DNA from: a virus
DNA: 64,000 nt
Virus record (IMG/VR): IMGVR_UViG_3300009365_003824
Location: 32,001-96,000 of that record
Strand: one strand, 5' to 3'
The position numbers were made by a program, and so were the translations under genes. Numbering within the stretch: the stretch's first letter is position 1; each line of letters begins with the position of its first letter. The notes beneath the pieces are model-generated. The model saw nothing but the letters and a program-made list of their open reading frames with translations, was not told the DNA's origin and ran no database searches. Shown piece by piece: positions 31,938 to 63,033 of the stretch.

Positions 31938-32299
31938 TACCTACCTGTTAAACTTGCAACGCCCTTATTGGCTCTGCCTTGTTGCCCTATAGTCATGCTG
32001 CCTAGAATTTGCAAGAAACTGGTCATTTCTTGTGGTGCAATAGCAATAACTCGTCTCAAGGCTTGAACTAACTTAGGGTCATATACCTGTTCCCCTGTTA
32101 TTCTTTGTATCAACCTTAAATAAGAAGCCACATCGCCTTTTTCAAGAGCATCACTAGGAGTTTCCAAACCAGCACTAGCAGTTACATTTGTATTTCCCAC
32201 CCCAGCTACATTTGTATTAACTGCATTACTGTTTCCCACCGCAGTAAGCTCAGTTTGAACTGCTTCAACTGTTTCTAACCACTCATTAAACTTCTTCAT
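31937..32299 (-). CDS. protein with capsid-targeting-like N-terminus
   Basis: MKKFNEWLE. Confidence 0.7.
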   Translation of the reverse strand: MKKFNEWLETVEAVQTELTAVGNSNAVNTNVAGVGNTNVTASAGLETPSDALEKGDVASYLRLIQRITGEQVYDPKLVQALRRVIAIAPQEMTSFLQILGSMTIGQQGRANKGVASLTGR

Positions 32300-50674: not shown

Positions 50675-51121
50675 TTACCCTCTTTCAGTGTTGTGTGGTG
50701 AATAAACCATTCTTCCACAACGAGAACACCTTTCAGAGCAAATCTCGTAACCATCTCTATCCCACGCATTGCCGCACCTACAAGAGTAGTGAGTGTTTTT
50801 GTTCACATTACGCAAATCTATAAAATCATTGTCTTCTGTAATGCGAATGACATTTTTAGGATCATCCCAGAAACCTTTTCCTTTAACATCTGGGATAGGA
50901 GGCGGTCCACTCTCTACTCCAAATTTAATGCAATTATACCATATTCTTTCGTGAAGATAGTAAATCACTATTTTGGCAAAGAAGTCTATTCCACAAATTA
51001 AACCTCCAACCCCAAGACTGCCAGTTAATGCCCAACCTGCTATTCCTGTAATAGTGCTGCCTATGATGCGGTAACTTATTGCTTTAGCTAGATGCCTCTT
51101 CCGGCTTATCTTTTTCTTCAT
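50675..51121 (-). CDS. DUF2061-like membrane protein with C-terminal zinc ribbon
   Basis: RHLAKAISYRIIGS..TG..KIVIYYLHERIW; CRCG..CSRCG. Confidence 0.8.
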   Translation of the reverse strand: MKKKISRKRHLAKAISYRIIGSTITGIAGWALTGSLGVGGLICGIDFFAKIVIYYLHERIWYNCIKFGVESGPPPIPDVKGKGFWDDPKNVIRITEDNDFIDLRNVNKNTHYSCRCGNAWDRDGYEICSERCSRCGRMVYSPHNTERG

Positions 51122-52055
51122 CTTTTTTAACCTGTATTAAGCCATAATACTTAGTGCCCATGCGTAATAATTTTTTCCCATAACGAGTTATCAAACCCTT
51201 TTTGGGATGAAAGGTGTCAGGATCTAGAATAACAGGAGTAAAAGTTAGCGGAACATAAGGAGAATATTGGTATCCCGCCTCGTAATACCAGAGGTTATCT
51301 TCATCATCTTCTTTTTCTCTGCCCCTTAATCCTATAAGCACAGTATCTTCGGGAAATTCCACATCAACATACAGTGGACAACCAATGTGGGATACAAAGA
51401 AAATTTCATCATCAGTTTCGGGAAATCTACCACTGTAATATTCTGATAGCATTTTTCCTATCTTGGGAGAAGTTAAAATCCAATAATCGCTACTTAACAG
51501 TGTTTTTCTGTGGATGACATCTTTTATTTCCTTGATTCTAAAATACCAACCCTCTCCATCTAACCCAGGATCAACAAGAGCTTTAGTTCCAACATTGTTT
51601 CGTAAATCTGTTGTGATTTCACGGGTTATTTCATTTGATATTTTGGCGGCTAGGTTTTCATCATCCCATTCTGTTTCTGTTTCTAGTCTTTTGGTCCTGG
51701 CAGCTATTTCTTCGCTATCTAAAACTAATTTAATTTCATCACCATCTTCTTTGAATGCAAGAAAATAAACAAGTCCTGCTGGGCCTAGAAGAGTTTGAAT
51801 AGAAACGAAATGCCTAGCCATGAGGTTAGAATAAATATCAAATACCAGTTGAAGGTCAATCTTACTATGTCCAGATGAGGTTTCGTTCATCAATCGTTGG
51901 TTTTCTAATATGATCGCCAACTGTTTTGCATATTCAGAATCTACTTTCTCAAAAGGAAAATGATCCTTCCACTTCTCAAGACAAGAGGCAGCTTCTTCAT
52001 CGTGCCTTTTTTTGGAAATCAAAGGGTCGAAAGGGTTTAGTTTCTTTTTGGCCAT
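51084..52055 (-). CDS. second gp23-family capsid protein (shortened paralogue)
   Basis: shares LENQRL.NE, LLGP.GLVY.L, SEE.AA.T..L, TDLRNN.GT, HRKTL, PYVPLT.TPV.LDP..F.P.KG..TRYGKKLLR with the MCP. Confidence 0.85.
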   Translation of the reverse strand: MAKKKLNPFDPLISKKRHDEEAASCLEKWKDHFPFEKVDSEYAKQLAIILENQRLMNETSSGHSKIDLQLVFDIYSNLMARHFVSIQTLLGPAGLVYFLAFKEDGDEIKLVLDSEEIAARTKRLETETEWDDENLAAKISNEITREITTDLRNNVGTKALVDPGLDGEGWYFRIKEIKDVIHRKTLLSSDYWILTSPKIGKMLSEYYSGRFPETDDEIFFVSHIGCPLYVDVEFPEDTVLIGLRGREKEDDEDNLWYYEAGYQYSPYVPLTFTPVILDPDTFHPKKGLITRYGKKLLRMGTKYYGLIQVKKDEEKDKPEEASS

Positions 52056-52245: not shown

Positions 52246-53016
52246 ATGCCACACCCGCAATACAACAGATGGCAAACCCCGATAACATTCTCCTCTTATA
52301 AAGAGAGAAAGTTGATCAGAAGAATTGACAAAAAATTGGAGAAGATCGCAAGGTTAGACTATTGCGCAGGCGAGGGTGAAGTGCTTAATCCATTTGACAA
52401 ACATAGGTTTGCTACTCAGCCCGTATATCATACGAAAGCCCCAAAAATTAGGGCTAGAGGGCAAATTGTAGTTGCATATCGTGAAATCACTGGGCAATAT
52501 TCTATCCCATGTGATCGTGGTTATTGGACACTTTGTAACAAGCAACCTAATGTGGATGGTGCCGAAATCGTACAATTGGTGAAATGTGGGTTGTTGCAAA
52601 AAAAGCAGTTTTATGGAATCGACTATGATCTGAATGATGAAGGCATCATAGAATTCAACCAACAACAACATCCTGAAGCCAATTGGTTCAAAGGCGAGTG
52701 GTTAGAAGTCATTGAAGAAAACTACGAGTTGTTCAATCCTGGTCTAATCTATTTCGATTACACTCGCACAGTTGTTACTCCTGCTTGCCACTTGTATCTA
52801 GCTCGCACGATGAATATGTGCCCCCCCAAGACAGTCGTGGCAGCTAATCTTATGTTGTCGGATGGGCACTCTCGCCGCCGATTCGACCCAGATTTATTGG
52901 TCGAAAATCTGGGAATTCATTTAAGATCCCCCAGTAATTGGGATGTGTATGACAAGTATTATTCGTATAAATCTAGTCATACAGAAATGGCTACTTACAT
53001 CTTCGTGAGAAAATAA
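52246..53016 (+). CDS. SAM-methyltransferase-fold protein (tentative)
   Basis: FYGID....IIE.N....P..NWF.GE....IYFDY Rossmann-like strand order; no NPPY/DPPY/PC motif. Confidence 0.45.
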   Translation: MPHPQYNRWQTPITFSSYKERKLIRRIDKKLEKIARLDYCAGEGEVLNPFDKHRFATQPVYHTKAPKIRARGQIVVAYREITGQYSIPCDRGYWTLCNKQPNVDGAEIVQLVKCGLLQKKQFYGIDYDLNDEGIIEFNQQQHPEANWFKGEWLEVIEENYELFNPGLIYFDYTRTVVTPACHLYLARTMNMCPPKTVVAANLMLSDGHSRRRFDPDLLVENLGIHLRSPSNWDVYDKYYSYKSSHTEMATYIFVRK

Positions 53017-54891
53017 ATGCATTTACATCCAGCTAATTTTGACTACTACGATCCAAATTGGAAGCCCATTACGGCTAATATTGCGGTCTTAAAAGACACC
53101 GACCCCAAGGAGTTGGGATATGGTAATCGTGACTACCAAATTAGATGCTACGAAGCGTTTCAAGGAAAAAGAAGAACGATATTTATTTCTCCGACAGGCA
53201 GTGGTAAAAGTTTAGTGCAGATTTTTAATGCTGCTAGAGAGATTATTGAATCGGACTATGAACAAAAACAAGTGTTTATTGTCCCTCAATTGAATATTGG
53301 TGATGGTTTCACGGATTACAAACACAAAAAATTGCGGATCAATGGTGAAATTTATGGTTGGGAGGTTACTACAAATTGTTGTTTTGACAATGAGCAGTCT
53401 GTTAAAAGAATCAGAGGTTTCCTCCTGAAGGATCATCCATGTAAATCATATCGAGCAAACAAGGTACTAGGAGGTTGCACCGCTGTAGTGAGTTATTCGG
53501 CATTGTTGGCAGCTTTTAATAGTATGACTCCTAGAGAAAAAATGCGAGCTATTCAGAATACTTCATTTCGTCCCGATGAGGTTCATCATATCTCTGGCGT
53601 GGATGAAGGTGGTGTTGCACCAAACCGCTTAGGAGGATTTTGTAAATTCGTTTTGGACAATGACGGTTGCTTACACTTAACTACGGCGACATTCTTTCGT
53701 GGTGATCGGGGTGTAATTCTTGATGGTCATTATCTGGATGATTTTGAGGTTTTCCGTGTCCCATTTCTTGAACACTGGGCGACGTTAAGATTAAAAGAAC
53801 TTCATCAGGACTACCTTTGTTATAAAAATAGCAATGATCTTTTGAGACAAATTCTAACTGCTGTAGCGGCTGAACCAGATAAGCCACCAATCATCATCGT
53901 TCCAGCAGATGGACAAAAGTTCTTTAAACGCACAAACAAATGGAAGTGGGTTGAAAGACTCGTGGATGGTTTGACTGAGATTTATGGAGATAGAGTTCTT
54001 GATCTTGTTACGCCTGAACGTCAACAACGAGACAAAAAACGATTAACTGCTGATGTTCAAGATTTTTGTGCTGTTGTCACTTGTGCCATTGGAAGAGAAG
54101 GAACTGATTGGCCAGCATGTTCTCGTGTTCATAACACGGTATTAGATGCTAATACTCTGCAACCAATTCAGAAACTCGGAAGAGCTTTGCGTCAACACGA
54201 AGAAAAAACCGATATTAAAATGTTTAATTATATTGAGCATTTTAAGAAGTGGGACGATAGCCCTGATACTGTTCGTGAAAAGCTATCAGATCGTTTCAAT
54301 GCTGTTGTAATGGCCTCTATGTTGGATGATATGTTTTATCCCATCCTCATGCCAGCAATACCTCAAGATAAAAACCGCGTTTGCAATGTGACGCTTGAAG
54401 ATGTGTATGGAAGCAAACGAAATGAATTAGTTGAAGATATGATGCGACGATTACTGGCAATTCCCGCATCAAATAGAAACGCTGAAGCCATCAATGAACT
54501 TGTTGATGAGATCATTGAAGAATATGAAGACGACATGTTGGAGGATGTTTCACATGACACCCTCAGAGAACGATTGCGAAAAGAAATTCTCCGTCGCCAA
54601 AACCCTAGTAGTCCTAATCTTCGTATGGATGGGATGATTGTTGATTTTGTTCGTGAGCATGGTTGGGATAAGGTTATACGAAAATATATCGCCAAAAAAT
54701 CCCCCTTTGTAGGCGTTGCAGCAACTAAAGACCTTGAAAAATTGCAAAAGTTTTTAAACAAAGGCGATTGGCTAGAGAATGTTGAACAAATTAAAAAGAT
54801 AGGACTTGAAAACATACAAAAAGGAAGTCGGCTTTATCATTTCCTTTTAAAACAACGCCGAGATTTCAGAAAGGCAACGCACAGTGCTTAA
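53017..54891 (+). CDS. SF2 DExH helicase, YeeB/ResIII-like, with a truncated C-terminal HA-like domain
   Basis: RDYQ, SPTGSGKS, DEVHH, TATFFRGD, GREGTDWP, QKLGRALR. Confidence 0.88.
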   Translation: MHLHPANFDYYDPNWKPITANIAVLKDTDPKELGYGNRDYQIRCYEAFQGKRRTIFISPTGSGKSLVQIFNAAREIIESDYEQKQVFIVPQLNIGDGFTDYKHKKLRINGEIYGWEVTTNCCFDNEQSVKRIRGFLLKDHPCKSYRANKVLGGCTAVVSYSALLAAFNSMTPREKMRAIQNTSFRPDEVHHISGVDEGGVAPNRLGGFCKFVLDNDGCLHLTTATFFRGDRGVILDGHYLDDFEVFRVPFLEHWATLRLKELHQDYLCYKNSNDLLRQILTAVAAEPDKPPIIIVPADGQKFFKRTNKWKWVERLVDGLTEIYGDRVLDLVTPERQQRDKKRLTADVQDFCAVVTCAIGREGTDWPACSRVHNTVLDANTLQPIQKLGRALRQHEEKTDIKMFNYIEHFKKWDDSPDTVREKLSDRFNAVVMASMLDDMFYPILMPAIPQDKNRVCNVTLEDVYGSKRNELVEDMMRRLLAIPASNRNAEAINELVDEIIEEYEDDMLEDVSHDTLRERLRKEILRRQNPSSPNLRMDGMIVDFVREHGWDKVIRKYIAKKSPFVGVAATKDLEKLQKFLNKGDWLENVEQIKKIGLENIQKGSRLYHFLLKQRRDFRKATHSA

Positions 54892-55843
54892 AAAATGGCA
54901 AATATCGGCACTAGAAAGTATTGAAGGATGGGATGAATTCCTTGCTAATGCTAATAATGCTGCTGAAAAGAAGCAACTATTATTGGAAATGGCTAGGAAT
55001 GGAGAGCCAAGGCCACGATCACAAAAACATTATCTTGCGGGAGCACTAAATTCTTACATCGGTAAGTCAAATAATAGTTACGACCCAGAGTTTGATAAAA
55101 AGATTAGAAAATTAGCACCACACTGGTTCGTTAGTACTGCTGCTAAAAATAAAAAACTGCTGCTAGAAATGGCGAGGAATGGAAAACCACGACCAGTTCA
55201 AACAACACAATTGGGATCAGCATTAAACTCTTATACTAAGGGTTGTTGTGATCTTGTTTTCGACAAAAAAATTAGAGAACTGGCTCCACATTGGTTTGAT
55301 ACTACTGCTAGGAACAAAGAAGCCCTTCTCGAAATGGCAAGAAGTGGAGAACCACGACCAAATTGTAAAAAGAATCCATTGGGAAAAAGACTTGTGCGTT
55401 ATATCGGTAAGTCAAGTGGTTCTTATGATCCTGCTTTTGACAAAGAAATTAGAAAACTAGCCCCACATTGGTTTGTTGACACTGCTGCTGAAAAAAAACA
55501 ACTATTGTTGGAAATGGCCAGGAATGGAGAACCACGACCAACAAAAAACCCGCTAAAATCAGCATTAAATAATTATCTTTGCGAGGCAAGCGGCTGTTGC
55601 GACCCTGTTTTCGACAAAAAAATTAGAAAACTAGCCCCACATTGGTTTGTTGATACTGCTGCTGAAAATAAGAAACTATTGTTAGAGATGGCACGCAATG
55701 GTGAACCCAGGCCAAATAGCAAAAATGGATCTCTGGGGAATTGTCTTGTGCGATATACGAATAATACTAGCTCCTATGATAAAGAGTTTGACAAAAAAAT
55801 TAGAAAACTAGCTCCGCACTGGTTCAGGAAGAATCATGCTTAA
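54884..55843 (+). CDS. repeat protein A: 20-aa leader plus 5 HA-like repeats
   Basis: GTG start overlapping the helicase stop by 8 nt; repeats LLEMARNGEPRP..LG..L..Y..DP.FDK.IR.LAPHWF. Confidence 0.85.
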   Translation: MLKKWQISALESIEGWDEFLANANNAAEKKQLLLEMARNGEPRPRSQKHYLAGALNSYIGKSNNSYDPEFDKKIRKLAPHWFVSTAAKNKKLLLEMARNGKPRPVQTTQLGSALNSYTKGCCDLVFDKKIRELAPHWFDTTARNKEALLEMARSGEPRPNCKKNPLGKRLVRYIGKSSGSYDPAFDKEIRKLAPHWFVDTAAEKKQLLLEMARNGEPRPTKNPLKSALNNYLCEASGCCDPVFDKKIRKLAPHWFVDTAAENKKLLLEMARNGEPRPNSKNGSLGNCLVRYTNNTSSYDKEFDKKIRKLAPHWFRKNHA

Positions 55844-56867
55844 AAAATGGCAAATATCGGCACTAGAAAGCATTGAAGGATGGGATGAATTCCTCAATGA
55901 GGAATCGTCTTCTGCCAAAAATAAAAAACTGTTGTTGGAAATGGCAAGAAATGGAGAGCCAAGACCAAAAAAAAATAAACACCCATTGGGATCTGTACTG
56001 ACTGCTTATACAGGAAAAATGAGAGATTGTTACGATCCTGTATTTGACAAACAAATTAGAGAATTAGCTCCACATTGGTTCATTGCTGTTGTAGAAGAAA
56101 ATAAAAGACTATTATTGGAAATGGCAAAGAAGGGAAAACCAAGACCAAAACAAGGCAAACATCCGTTAGGAGGCAAATTGAGTGATTACACCAATGGAAT
56201 CCATCGTGGTTCTAAATTTGACAAGCAAATTAGAAGATTGGCACCACATTGGTTTGTCGAACAAACTATCGAACAGAAAAAACAACAACTCCTTGAAATG
56301 GCAAGAAATGGCGAGCCAAGACCATCTCAAAGGAAATATCCTTCACTGGGGTCTGCATTAAGTCGTTATACTGACAAAAACAAATCTTATGATCCTGACT
56401 TTGATAGAGAAATTAGAAAATTAGCACCGCATTGGTTTGTTGATGCTGCTGAAAATAAAAAATTGCTTCTTGAAATGGCTAGGAACGGAGAGCCAAGACC
56501 ATCTAAGGAAATCCCATTAGGAAGAATAATAAATTATTACTTTAGGTGCGATCCTGATTTTTACAAGAAGATCAAAGAATTAGCTCCACATTGGTTCGAT
56601 AGGAAAAGTCATAAGCAATCTAAAATTGCCAAGCAGAAAAAACAACAACTTCTTGAAATGGCTCGCAATGGAGAGCCACGACCAAAAAGAAAAAAACACA
56701 AATTAGGAATATCATTGGGTTGTTATACCAGTAAAAACAATAGTTCTTATGATCCTGCCTTCGACAAGCAGATTAGAAAACTAGCTCCGCACTGGTTCAG
56801 GAAGAATCATGCTTAAAAAATGGCAAATATCGGCACTAGAAAGTATTGAAGGATGGGATGAATTCCT
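55799..56867 (+). repeat. 96-bp direct repeat (1 mismatch) spanning the A/B and B/C gene junctions; the last ~58 bp also occur at 54885
   Basis: 55799-55894 versus 56772-56867, read directly. Confidence 0.9.
55836..56816 (+). CDS. repeat protein B: same leader plus 5 HA-like repeats
   Basis: SD AGGA plus ATG, 8-nt overlap. Confidence 0.85.
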   Translation: MLKKWQISALESIEGWDEFLNEESSSAKNKKLLLEMARNGEPRPKKNKHPLGSVLTAYTGKMRDCYDPVFDKQIRELAPHWFIAVVEENKRLLLEMAKKGKPRPKQGKHPLGGKLSDYTNGIHRGSKFDKQIRRLAPHWFVEQTIEQKKQQLLEMARNGEPRPSQRKYPSLGSALSRYTDKNKSYDPDFDREIRKLAPHWFVDAAENKKLLLEMARNGEPRPSKEIPLGRIINYYFRCDPDFYKKIKELAPHWFDRKSHKQSKIAKQKKQQLLEMARNGEPRPKRKKHKLGISLGCYTSKNNSSYDPAFDKQIRKLAPHWFRKNHA

Positions 56868-57249
56868 TAATGAAGAATCTTCTTCTGACAAAAAGAAAAA
56901 ACTGCTTCTTGAAATGGCACGGAATGGAGAACCACGACCAAAGAGTAAAAAACATCCGGGTGTAGCATTGAGTAATTACATCAGTAAGTCAAGTAATGCT
57001 TACGATTCAGACTTCGATAAGAAAATTAGAAAACTGGCACCACACTGGTTTGTTGATGCTGTTGCTGAAAAGAAAAAACTGCTTCTTGAAATGGCAAAGA
57101 ATGGTGAACCACGACCGAAGTGCGTCTTCGGCCAGAAAAGCAATCCATTGGGAAGGGCGTTAAGGGATTACATCAGTAAGTCAAGTGGCTCTTACGATCC
57201 TACTTTCGACAAGCAGATTAGAAAACTAGCACCGCACTGGTTCAATTAG
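56809..57249 (+). CDS. repeat protein C: same leader plus 2 HA-like repeats
   Basis: SD AGGA plus ATG, 8-nt overlap. Confidence 0.85.
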   Translation: MLKKWQISALESIEGWDEFLNEESSSDKKKKLLLEMARNGEPRPKSKKHPGVALSNYISKSSNAYDSDFDKKIRKLAPHWFVDAVAEKKKLLLEMAKNGEPRPKCVFGQKSNPLGRALRDYISKSSGSYDPTFDKQIRKLAPHWFN

Positions 57250-60323: not shown

Positions 60324-61484
60324 ATGTATTTACAAGAACTGAACGGTATTCTACCCGCTCAAAAAGTAAAAATCAAGTATGACTGCAATGGTGGATTTGA
60401 ACGTTGTGGTCAAGAGTGGGAGCTTAAATTAAAGGATGCTCAAAAGAATTTTAAGAAGAATGAAGGAAAACACATTTGTCGAAAGTGTACGCTACGACAA
60501 AAAAATCCGATGTTCGACAAAAAGAACGTTGAAAAGATCAAAAAGACTAATTTAGAAAGGTATGGAACTGAACACCCGCTAAATTCTGAAGAACACATCC
60601 AAGAACGCCGGGAACAACTCAAAGATCCAGAATTCAAGAAGAAATGGTTGGCAAAACACCGGCAAACATCACTTGAGAAGTATGGTGTCGAACACCATAT
60701 GAAGAGTGAAGTCTCAAAAGAAAATCAAAGAAAATCAATGAGAGAGAAGTATGGTGTAGATTACCCATATCAATCCGAAGAGATTATGGCCAAAATGAAA
60801 AAACGTAATTTGGAAAAGTATGGAGTAGAAAATGCAGCATCTCGACCAGAAGTTCAAATTAAAATGGCAAAGACGAGATTAGAAAAATATGGAGTAGAGC
60901 ATTATAATCAATTACCAGAAATGAGAGAATATTTAAGAGAACACTGTACAGAATGGCTGGCTGAAAGTTATAAAAATCCGTGGGCCAAAGGAATTACGAG
61001 GCCAGAGGAATGGAATCAGAAACAGAGGGAAACGGTTGCTAAACTTATTACCGAAGGCAATTGGCCAGGAGGATTTGTGTCTAATTGTCGAGGAAGATAT
61101 AAAGCAAAAAAATGTAAAAAAGAAAACCCTCGGTTTCTATCTGGTTTAGAATTGCAAATGCACTTTTTTTTAGACAATCATCCAGATGTAGAATGGTATA
61201 ATTATGAGTCTTTTGCTATTCCCTATTTAGATCAAGATGGCAAACAGCATCTATACTTTCCTGACTTTTTAGTTAAATATAAAAATGATCCATTAGAACA
61301 CATTATTGAGACTAAAACATGGAAAGATAAGGATTCAATTACTGTGAAGTTAAAACATGACGCAGCAGTTGATTATGCAAATGAACGGAGCATGACATAT
61401 ACAATTTTATTTGATGAAGATGTGCAAGAATTGGGAATAGATTTAGAAAGTGTTAAAAATTTACCAGTAGTTGAATTATATTAA
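60324..61484 (+). CDS. homing-type endonuclease: EKYGV repeats plus a TnsA-N-like nuclease
   Basis: repeated (L)EKYGV(E/D); S.LE..YESF.IPY...H.Y.PDFLV..IIETK. Confidence 0.8.
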   Translation: MYLQELNGILPAQKVKIKYDCNGGFERCGQEWELKLKDAQKNFKKNEGKHICRKCTLRQKNPMFDKKNVEKIKKTNLERYGTEHPLNSEEHIQERREQLKDPEFKKKWLAKHRQTSLEKYGVEHHMKSEVSKENQRKSMREKYGVDYPYQSEEIMAKMKKRNLEKYGVENAASRPEVQIKMAKTRLEKYGVEHYNQLPEMREYLREHCTEWLAESYKNPWAKGITRPEEWNQKQRETVAKLITEGNWPGGFVSNCRGRYKAKKCKKENPRFLSGLELQMHFFLDNHPDVEWYNYESFAIPYLDQDGKQHLYFPDFLVKYKNDPLEHIIETKTWKDKDSITVKLKHDAAVDYANERSMTYTILFDEDVQELGIDLESVKNLPVVELY

Positions 61485-61557: not shown

Positions 61558-63033
61558 TCAAATCACAAAATTGGCAATCGAGAGGCGTGCGTAGAATTTA
61601 GCACCTTCTCTCAAAAGTTTTTTACCATATCTCGTTAAAATACCTTTTCTTGGGCAAAAATTCTCTGGGTCCAGAACCACTGGGGTCTGTGTCAGGGGGA
61701 CGTATGGTAGGTAAAAATACCCAGCATCCATATAACTGTCGCCCTTGTAACCCATTAAAATCTGCCCTTGCGGGAAGAGCGGATCTTTGTATAATCTCCA
61801 GCGAGAATTTACTGTTCCGACGTATTGAATACCCAAGGAACTTGTGAATGTCTCGGAAGGAGCGGGTGCGAAACCAGCAGTTGCGGTTTCAAAAATGGAG
61901 GCTACTTCAGGAGAAGTTACCAACCAGTTGCAACCACCACGCAGAGTTTTACGGTGAACAACATTTGAAACTTCTACGACCTTGACATACAAGGATTCGT
62001 ATTTTTCTTTAATTGTGTCACCAAGCGCGGTATTGAAATCCCAGGAGGAAATTGTGCCAGCGTTGTTTCTCAGGTCAGTGAGAACTTCACGGTCGATTTC
62101 CAAGTTAATTTCCTGAGCCAAGATAGCAGTTAATTCTGCTTCGGCGTCAAGATTGTGCTGAGATCGCAGGTCTTGCTGAGCTTCGTAGCTCCAAACGGCC
62201 TTCAATTTACGAGTCTTGGCTGCAACTTCTTCGGATTCGATAACCATGTTGATCTCAGGAAGATCAGGGTTACATTCCATGTTGTACTCATAATTTACAA
62301 GCACATAGTTTTCGCCAGGACCAGCCCCGCCACCACCAGTGTCAGACCACTGGACAACAACTTCACCCGTTGTAAGGTCCATTGAGGAACCTGTAGCAAC
62401 TGGGGTATAGTCGGGGGAGCCAATTGTTGTAAATGTAAACGCACCATTTTCACCAACACCAAAAGTAGCGACTGCGGTTGTGCCATCAAAGACGGTACCT
62501 GTCATGCTACCAGCGAGGATTGGGGTGTGTTCAAGCGGAGCATAAACACTAACCATATCCAAGCCATCATCCTGAGAGCTAGTCTCGTTCTGGATGAACT
62601 GGTGGGAGTAGTAAATATCCAAGTTTGCATCACCAGATGCCAACTGTTGGAGGGTGTTTACATCGTCATCTGGATAGCCAGCGTTATTATCAGCACCACG
62701 GGTGGCACCTTTATTGCTGGAGTATCTAAATCTCAGGTAGTAAACCAAACCAGTTGGGCCAAGTAGCGGTTGAACGGAAACAATTTTATTTGCGATCAAC
62801 TGCGGATAAATTCTACGGACCAACGGAATAGAAATTCTTTTGAACTGGGCGATGTCGCCAGTATCAGTAGAGACTTCGTTGAACAATCTCTGGTTTTCCA
62901 GAAGAACAGCAGTGCAAGAGCGGGTATAGTCATCATCTAAATCGCCTTTGACGCTCTTCAGCAAACCTGTTTTGTTCCAGAAGCCTTCGCATTCTTTTGC
63001 TTCGTTAAGAAGCCTTGAATTGCCACTAAACAT
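61558..63033 (-). CDS. major capsid protein, T4 gp23 family
   Basis: IPLVRR.YP.LIA..IVSVQP..GPTGL, AKTRKLKA.WS.EA.QDL...H.LDAEAEL..IL..EI..EIDRE, DAGYFY.PYVPL, P.KG..TRYG. Confidence 0.95.
   Translation of the reverse strand: MFSGNSRLLNEAKECEGFWNKTGLLKSVKGDLDDDYTRSCTAVLLENQRLFNEVSTDTGDIAQFKRISIPLVRRIYPQLIANKIVSVQPLLGPTGLVYYLRFRYSSNKGATRGADNNAGYPDDDVNTLQQLASGDANLDIYYSHQFIQNETSSQDDGLDMVSVYAPLEHTPILAGSMTGTVFDGTTAVATFGVGENGAFTFTTIGSPDYTPVATGSSMDLTTGEVVVQWSDTGGGGAGPGENYVLVNYEYNMECNPDLPEINMVIESEEVAAKTRKLKAVWSYEAQQDLRSQHNLDAEAELTAILAQEINLEIDREVLTDLRNNAGTISSWDFNTALGDTIKEKYESLYVKVVEVSNVVHRKTLRGGCNWLVTSPEVASIFETATAGFAPAPSETFTSSLGIQYVGTVNSRWRLYKDPLFPQGQILMGYKGDSYMDAGYFYLPYVPLTQTPVVLDPENFCPRKGILTRYGKKLLREGAKFYARLSIANFVI

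Follow-up and report, generated by a model that had tools for sequence, protein, structure and literature searches.

The 64,000-nt stretch of viral DNA analyzed here, called the window in the following (positions 32,001 to 96,000 of the IMG/VR record IMGVR_UViG_3300009365_003824), is part of a 106-kb record that is only 21% complete. Directly after a gene encoding a superfamily 2 (SF2) helicase, the window carries 12 copies of a protein repeat, divided over three overlapping genes (5+5+2). These repeats are probably divergent helicase-associated (HA)-like modules that serve as helicase-coupled, multivalent binders of nucleic acid with little sequence specificity. Since each of the three open reading frames has its own start, the array represents three proteins and not one:

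54884-55843, plus strand: repeat gene A (protein P0001, 319 aa, GTG start), leader and 5 repeats
55836-56816, plus strand: repeat gene B (protein P0002, 326 aa), leader and 5 repeats
56809-57249, plus strand: repeat gene C (protein P0003, 146 aa), leader and 2 repeats

Translation and alignment yielded 12 copies of the unit, of 54-61 residues each, which span positions 54962-57246:

54962-55135, 55142-55303, 55307-55480, 55487-55654 and 55661-55831, plus strand: repeats 1-5 (alignment, hmmsearch)
55914-56087, 56094-56261, 56271-56444, 56448-56603 and 56631-56804, plus strand: repeats 6-10 (alignment, hmmsearch)
56887-57057 and 57064-57246, plus strand: repeats 11-12 (alignment)

K4, LLEMA, G, PRP, Y, F, I and LAPHWF were identical in 12/12 repeats. 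Thus, the twelve repeats with near-invariant flanks that had been proposed from the sequence alone were confirmed, as was the central segment that differs in 12/12 copies. The hydrophobic face LGxxLxxY proposed for this segment held for its L (or I) and for its Y, each present in 12/12 copies, but LG was found in 9/12 only. Similarly, the hypervariable "central helix" of the original prediction proved variable, but the helix comprises just 8 residues according to AlphaFold2 (AF2), and most of the variable segment consists of the two flanking loops, both of which carry indels. The varied positions were rich in S, R, N, K, Q and C, largely as anticipated; D, which had been counted among the enriched residues, was scarce, as was E, with acidic residues amounting to 1-6% at the helix positions. 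A search with TRF detected no DNA tandem repeat in the repeat region because the 12 copies are saturated for synonymous change throughout (proportion of synonymous differences, pS, of 0.65-0.75). Repeat positions 13-35 (e.g., 55343-55411), with the pattern G..RP......L..aL..Y, showed a weak, non-significant likeness to the helix-2/recognition-helix region of an ETS domain (PDB 4irg, E 0.53).

Three helices per repeat were predicted by AF2 for the five-repeat protein of gene B (pLDDT 91.4), and a single repeat (56887-57057) was modeled with a pLDDT of 92.0 and a pTM of 0.73. In the modeled unit, helix 1 comprises residues 2-13, helix 2 residues 25-32 and helix 3 residues 41-50, after which the chain makes a short turn through HWF.

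When 1.84 billion representatives clustered at 50% identity were searched with a profile of the 12 copies, 1029 proteins matched at E<=1e-3, 408 of them at E<=1e-30. Thus, the repeat unit lies far beyond chance. All family members that bear a name are called "hypothetical protein", and the start-to-start spacing of the repeats across the family is 54-66 residues. ResIII/DEAD helicase domains were found in 17 of 96 family members. In the fused relatives P0008, P0010, P0013, P0017, P0046, P0063 and P0072, the helicase is N-terminal and 4-10 repeats are C-terminal, beginning immediately after the helicase core; P0008 shares 55% identity with the helicase of the window (P0004) over residues 5-582 and continues with 8 repeats. 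A helicase accompanied by several repeat genes was also present in the viral contigs L008, L010, L012, L013 and L014 (60-364 kb). The helicase of L010 is followed by genes of 7, 7 and 1 repeats, that of L012 stands between a 6-repeat gene and genes of 5, 4, 5 and at least 2 repeats, and in L008 four genes totaling 19 repeats precede the helicase. The proteins nearest to the repeat proteins of the window shared at most 61% identity with them, and the viral contig collection contained no locus for P0002. No repeat-family match was found in 50,697 deposited phage genomes or, with motif patterns, in 185,579 prokaryote genomes, and a second prokaryote scan was also empty. So far, the family appears in large phage contigs and metagenomes only.

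From the helicase architecture, the structural and feature neighbors and the matches of Pfam family PF03457 (HA) in a few relatives, it is very likely that the repeats belong to the HA-like class, as a divergent branch outside Pfam coverage. HA domains and the phage repeats have in common a unit of about 60 residues, for which three helices are predicted in the phage repeats, tandem copies C-terminal to a ResIII/DEAD-type SF2 helicase, as seen in the fused relatives, and the pattern W ... helix ... G..P ... LG..(aromatic/L) ... helix ... W. They differ in that LGxWxxxQR of HA is replaced by LGxxLxxY in the phage repeats, in the strictly conserved G-x-PRP turn and LAPHWF end of the latter, and in the division of the phage arrays among separate, coupled genes that share a leader; in addition, the Pfam model does not detect the repeats of the window. 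PF03457 matched 6 of 96 relatives at E<0.01, and precomputed PF03457 matches were available for 4 of 120 relatives. The top four feature neighbors of the gene C protein in the ESM Atlas were all HA clusters (score 0.89, 189/256 features), and its top structure neighbor there was a cluster of actinobacterial DEAD helicases with HA in 100% of the members (TM 0.53). Of the Foldseek matches in BFVD, those at ranks 1, 3, 4, 5, 6 and 9 (E 1.8e-5 to 5.8e-2) were SF2/ResIII helicases or "Helicase associated domain" proteins from giant viruses and phages. Thus, the nearest neighbors in the Atlas and BFVD carried HA annotations, with moderate scores.

The residues that vary were determined over 1163 distinct repeats taken from 217 family proteins. 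The highest entropy (3.3-3.9 bits) was observed at positions 18-20, i.e., the loop following PRP, and at positions 26, 29, 30, 33 and 37; further positions reached 2.8-3.2 bits, and more than 10 positions vary in all. Positions 26, 29 and 30 are the x of LGxxLxxY. On a helical wheel, the variable positions 26, 29, 30 and 33 fall at 140-240 degrees and the conserved positions 24, 28 and 31 at 340-40 degrees. Since they lie opposite the conserved L/L/Y core, the variable helix residues would be located on the outer face, in agreement with the original prediction; this placement is based on periodicity and the AF2 helix boundaries. Acidic residues accounted for 1-12% at the variable positions 18-23, 26, 29, 30 and 33, and for 44-53% at the exposed positions 8, 14, 42, 44 and 53 of helices 1 and 3. 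On average, a repeat carries a net charge of +5.9, and the proteins of genes A, B and C have isoelectric points of 9.7-10. For a helicase-linked module whose face tolerates nearly anything but negative charge, proximity to nucleic acid is the best explanation. It is therefore plausible, judging from composition, that the variable face is turned towards nucleic acid. Cysteine was frequent at repeat positions 38 (25%) and 29 (13%), e.g., in the repeats at 55142-55303 and 55487-55654. Disulfide or metal pairing of these cysteines was considered and rejected, since columns 29 and 38 showed no positive association.

Several observations weigh against the assignment of the repeats to HA-like nucleic-acid binders. 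The PF03457 model missed the repeats of the window, both in P0001-P0003 (E<=1) and in single repeats and the 106-kb record (E<=10), its gathering score of 28.4 bits not being reached, and it was without match in five related phage records. The pTM of the five-repeat model was 0.54, and the geometry between repeats and the path of the array are uncertain. All fold matches in the PDB were weak and tied (best Z 4.1-4.7). These included 2kta, which, from its PDB title and the title of a reference in PMC12191111, we take for the HA domain of Bacteroides vulgatus BVU_0683 whose structure has been solved. With the single-repeat model, 2kta aligned over 56/57 residues (Z 3.5, root-mean-square deviation 3.4 A), an extent that speaks for HA-likeness, but at rank 11, tied with unrelated helical domains; with the five-repeat model, it was found at rank 10 (Z 4.1) among matches that were weak throughout. 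Foldseek against the PDB returned none at E<=0.001, and a PDB sequence search with the repeats gave chance-level matches only. DNA binding by HA is represented here by the title of one paper (reference 64 in PMC12191111). Finally, scarce acidic residues could also suit contacts within or between proteins.

The last point leads to an alternative that we regard as rather unlikely, namely, that the repeats are protein-binding scaffolds by which host or phage proteins would be recruited or sequestered, e.g., adaptors or decoys in defence and counter-defence, with the variable face as an interface exposed to changing selection. Arrays of helical repeats are often protein binders, and rapid turnover of repeats and changes in their number would fit such a role, as would neighboring genes of the methyltransferase-fold and nuclease-like types and the weak similarity of the P0004 helicase to the defence-system helicases PbeA and that of the Dnd restriction enzyme. 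However, the extreme basic charge and the uniform shortage of acidic residues in more than 1100 repeats suit a polyanion better, and the strict link to helicases, including the fusions, together with the HA-like neighbors favors a nucleic-acid substrate. PADLOC gave no match for the repeats.

The original prediction had gone further and proposed a recognition code under diversifying selection. Among the 12 copies, dN/dS (the ratio of nonsynonymous to synonymous change) was 0.04-0.07 in the flanks and about 0.2-0.3 in the center, with an unreliable denominator. Changes were also counted by parsimony on a tree built from 117 repeats of 8 loci, which gave dN/dS values of 0.01-0.3 for scaffold sites and about 0.5-1.2 for variable sites. 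No site was significantly above 1 among the 117 repeats (smallest p 0.18). In the least diverged paralogue pairs, central dN/dS was about 0.6-1.3, the closest pairs of repeats having a pS of at least 0.26. Diversifying selection was not borne out: under the refuting condition set in the original prediction, variable sites that evolve neutrally, these values count against it, and they are what relaxed constraint predicts. However, the data are saturated and close orthologues are lacking, so that the test has low power and leaves room for such selection.

It is improbable, then, that the variable helix of each repeat reads a few bases and that sequence-specific, programmable arrays aim the helicase at particular sites. 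Such a code would be in line with variable residues on a single exposed face poor in acidic residues, with arrays that are entirely different between related phages, with mutual information above that of shuffles for the position pairs 26-30 and 27-30, and with the weak ETS likeness mentioned above. Most repeats of the window had no recognizable orthologue in the nearest phages; variable-site identity to the repeats of these phages was 0.08-0.44, compared with a random-pair mean of 0.16, and three pairs exceeded the 95th percentile. TALE, PPR and PUF proteins, in which such codes would have their model, resemble the phage arrays in having tandem helical repeats, a conserved scaffold, variable exposed residues and, as proposed here, a nucleic-acid substrate. 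Their unit has a fixed length of about 34-36 residues, specificity resides in 2-3 positions that draw on few residue types, and the repeats form a single continuous superhelix. In contrast, the phage unit varies from 54 to 61 residues in the window and from 54 to 66 in the family, with indels in the loops, and more than 10 positions vary at 3.3-3.9 bits over the 1163 repeats rather than 2-3 positions with a restricted alphabet. In addition, helix 2 is just two turns long, the arrays are distributed over 3-5 polypeptides with 2-7 units each, and the dN/dS values lack any site significantly above 1. Nothing thus indicates that each repeat reads a few bases or that arrays are programmable. A version in which the arrays are modular sequence readers, the variable face of each HA-like unit preferring certain bases and several arrays being combined on one helicase via the shared leader, is slightly less probable still. 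If true, targeted DNA binding would have a new natural scaffold, which cassette recombination could exchange. Any sequence preference given by the variable face would have the larger consequence, and no evidence for it was obtained here.

That the variability stems from a diversity-generating retroelement or another dedicated mutagenic mechanism, or from misassembly of a repetitive region, is hardly credible in spite of the strikingly different segments and of contigs that break at the repeated leader, since two runs of one marine study gave the locus with 0 differences, P0002 was present on 3 contigs, divergence extends over synonymous sites throughout the unit (pS about 0.7) and is not limited to adenine-templated codons, and no reverse transcriptase (RVT_1) was found within the 106-kb record, 21% complete as it is.

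The reading of the repeats as HA-like, helicase-coupled binders also concerns the way in which the three genes are joined to the helicase gene and to each other. The relevant features are the following:

53017-54891, plus strand: divergent SF2 helicase (P0004, 624 aa), ResIII, PHROG 16
54763-54888, plus strand: C-terminal tail of the helicase (about 42 aa), which by sequence resembles the first part of an HA-like domain
54884-54946, plus strand: leader copy 1 (gene A), residues LKKWQISALESIEGWDEFL following the start codon
55836-55898, plus strand: leader copy 2 (gene B), AGGAAG 4 nt 5' of the ATG
56809-56871, plus strand: leader copy 3 (gene C), AGGAAG 4 nt 5' of the ATG

The helicase matched ResIII with an E of 2e-7 and PHROG 16 ("DNA helicase") with an E of 2.7e-16; the matches to DEAD and Helicase_C were weak. 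Genes A, B and C all open with the common 21-residue leader, and the relatives likewise start at MLKKWQI. The three 63-nt leaders shared 92-97% DNA identity, with 18-20 of 20 third codon positions the same, while the adjacent repeats are saturated at synonymous sites. This suggests that the identity of the leader DNA results from gene conversion or from constraint at the nucleotide level. The contigs of both runs end at the repeated leaders, where the shared word has about double depth.

At the gene junctions, start and stop overlap by 8 nt and read (A/G)TGCTTAAAAAATGG each time. Each gene is in the +1 frame of the preceding one, and the junction reads GCT TAA AAA. A programmed +1 frameshift joining helicase, A, B and C was considered and rejected as a general mechanism, since the frame steps differ in L008, L010 and L012. 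Transcriptional slippage on the A6 run was ruled out as well: the TAA lies 5' of the run, so that indels in the run cannot abolish this stop. The junctions carry a start codon and a Shine-Dalgarno-like motif (AGGAAG or AAAGG). Non-uniform frame steps, the starts and Shine-Dalgarno-like motifs, and the MLKKWQI starts of the relatives thus argue for translational coupling and not for frameshifting. The last repeat of genes A and B ends in HWFRK and not in HWFVD (55799-55843 and 56772-56816), and the RK codons of this end, AGGAAG, are located 4 nt 5' of the next ATG. After its final WF, a repeat-only relative mostly continues with KK, RK or KR (191 relatives). It seems that the same bases encode the protein tail and provide the ribosome-binding site for the gene that follows.

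The tail of the helicase is conserved in L008, L010 and L012 and missing from the fused relatives. When the tail and the leader of gene A were joined with an X at the break (54763-54946), HA was the best Pfam family (E 0.015); the equivalent join from L010 matched HA with an E of 0.046, and the match crossed the junction in both. Neither the tail alone nor the leader alone matched HA. A fuller HA-like N-terminus was found in protein P0114 (E 0.003, 18.3 bits against PF03457); this match and all those of tail and leader fall short of the Pfam threshold. From these sequence matches, tail and leader may represent a domain split between two genes. The leader may also dock each array onto the helicase; the predicted complex of leader and helicase tail scored 0.30 against a mark of 0.32, which is evidence neither way.

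T4-like phages provide a precedent for a helicase piece that is separate or fused, depending on the phage: the SF2 helicase UvsW has a small helical C-terminal piece that is either part of the protein or encoded by a separate downstream gene, uvsW.1. UvsW.1 is a single small domain, in contrast to the arrays described here, and no sequence similarity was found.

Taking the repeats as HA-like modules, the following mechanism appears the most likely. The phage would make the modules as three small proteins, translationally coupled to its SF2 helicase gene. Helix 1 (LLEMA), the G-x-PRP turn, those residues of helix 2 that face the core (L, L, Y) and helix 3 (F..I..LAPHWF) would build the conserved hydrophobic scaffold of each module, whereas the variable face with its low acidic content would comprise the outward side of helix 2 and the loops on either side of it, the first being that after PRP. 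Arranged in arrays, the basic modules (about +6 each) would bind DNA (or RNA) multivalently with little sequence specificity and would keep the helicase on its substrate or load it there; docking of the arrays on the helicase tail may be mediated by the N-terminal leader that they share. Exposed residues, required only to remain non-acidic, would be under weak constraint and hence variable, and units would be gained and lost via recombination between the conserved flanks.

HA is among the least understood helicase accessory domains. About a thousand clusters at 50% identity, all "hypothetical" and apparently confined to very large phages, escape its Pfam model, and a Pfam or PHROG model from these repeats would annotate many genes of huge phages. 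As the same modules occur both fused and separate, with a split into scaffold and variable face, they offer a clean system for studying the function of HA arrays.

A possible change in repeat number was seen between the two runs. A contig of run X2 joins 55445 to 55620, by which 174 nt (55446-55619), i.e., one unit, are removed in frame; the two sides are joined across 34 identical nt of the conserved flank. In run X2, the joined form had a depth of 9.5 and the skipped part a depth of 1, while run X1 has the full form. The skip may be a true 4-repeat allele of gene A or an assembly path. The latter is conceivable since the shared 34-nt word is longer than the word length of the assembler, which we take to be 31.

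The virus is best described as a huge marine phage, since the window encodes a T4-type major capsid protein (Gp23, E 1e-82) at 61558-63033 whose closest relative, with 75% identity, belongs to a 595-kb uncultured phage, the stretch is contained in two marine metagenome runs, and the loci related to the repeat module lie on viral contigs of 34 to 572 kb. On the plus strand, five genes are consecutive: a gene for a 256-aa protein, the SF2 helicase gene and the three repeat genes. The first of these is located as follows:

52246-53016, plus strand: 256-aa gene, modeled with a fold like that of class I S-adenosylmethionine (SAM)-dependent methyltransferases; its stop abuts the ATG of the helicase gene

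Searches of Pfam, NCBIfam and PADLOC with the 256-aa protein gave no match, and its structure neighbors in the Atlas were class I methyltransferases (TM 0.54-0.63). Homologues are located directly upstream of the helicase or the repeat module in L008, L010, L012, L013 and L015, and the 256-aa gene, the helicase and the repeats look like a three-part module.

Two further genes of the window have counterparts near related modules. Another Gp23-like protein, which is shorter (323 aa, E 2e-21), is encoded on the minus strand at 51084-52055, 9 kb from the full-length capsid gene; it covers the C-terminal half of the capsid model only, and homologues were found near the module in L009 and L010. The gene at 60324-61484 encodes DUF7487 and a TnsA-like endonuclease N-terminal domain, and it shares 47% identity with the gene just 3' of the repeat genes in L009 and L010.

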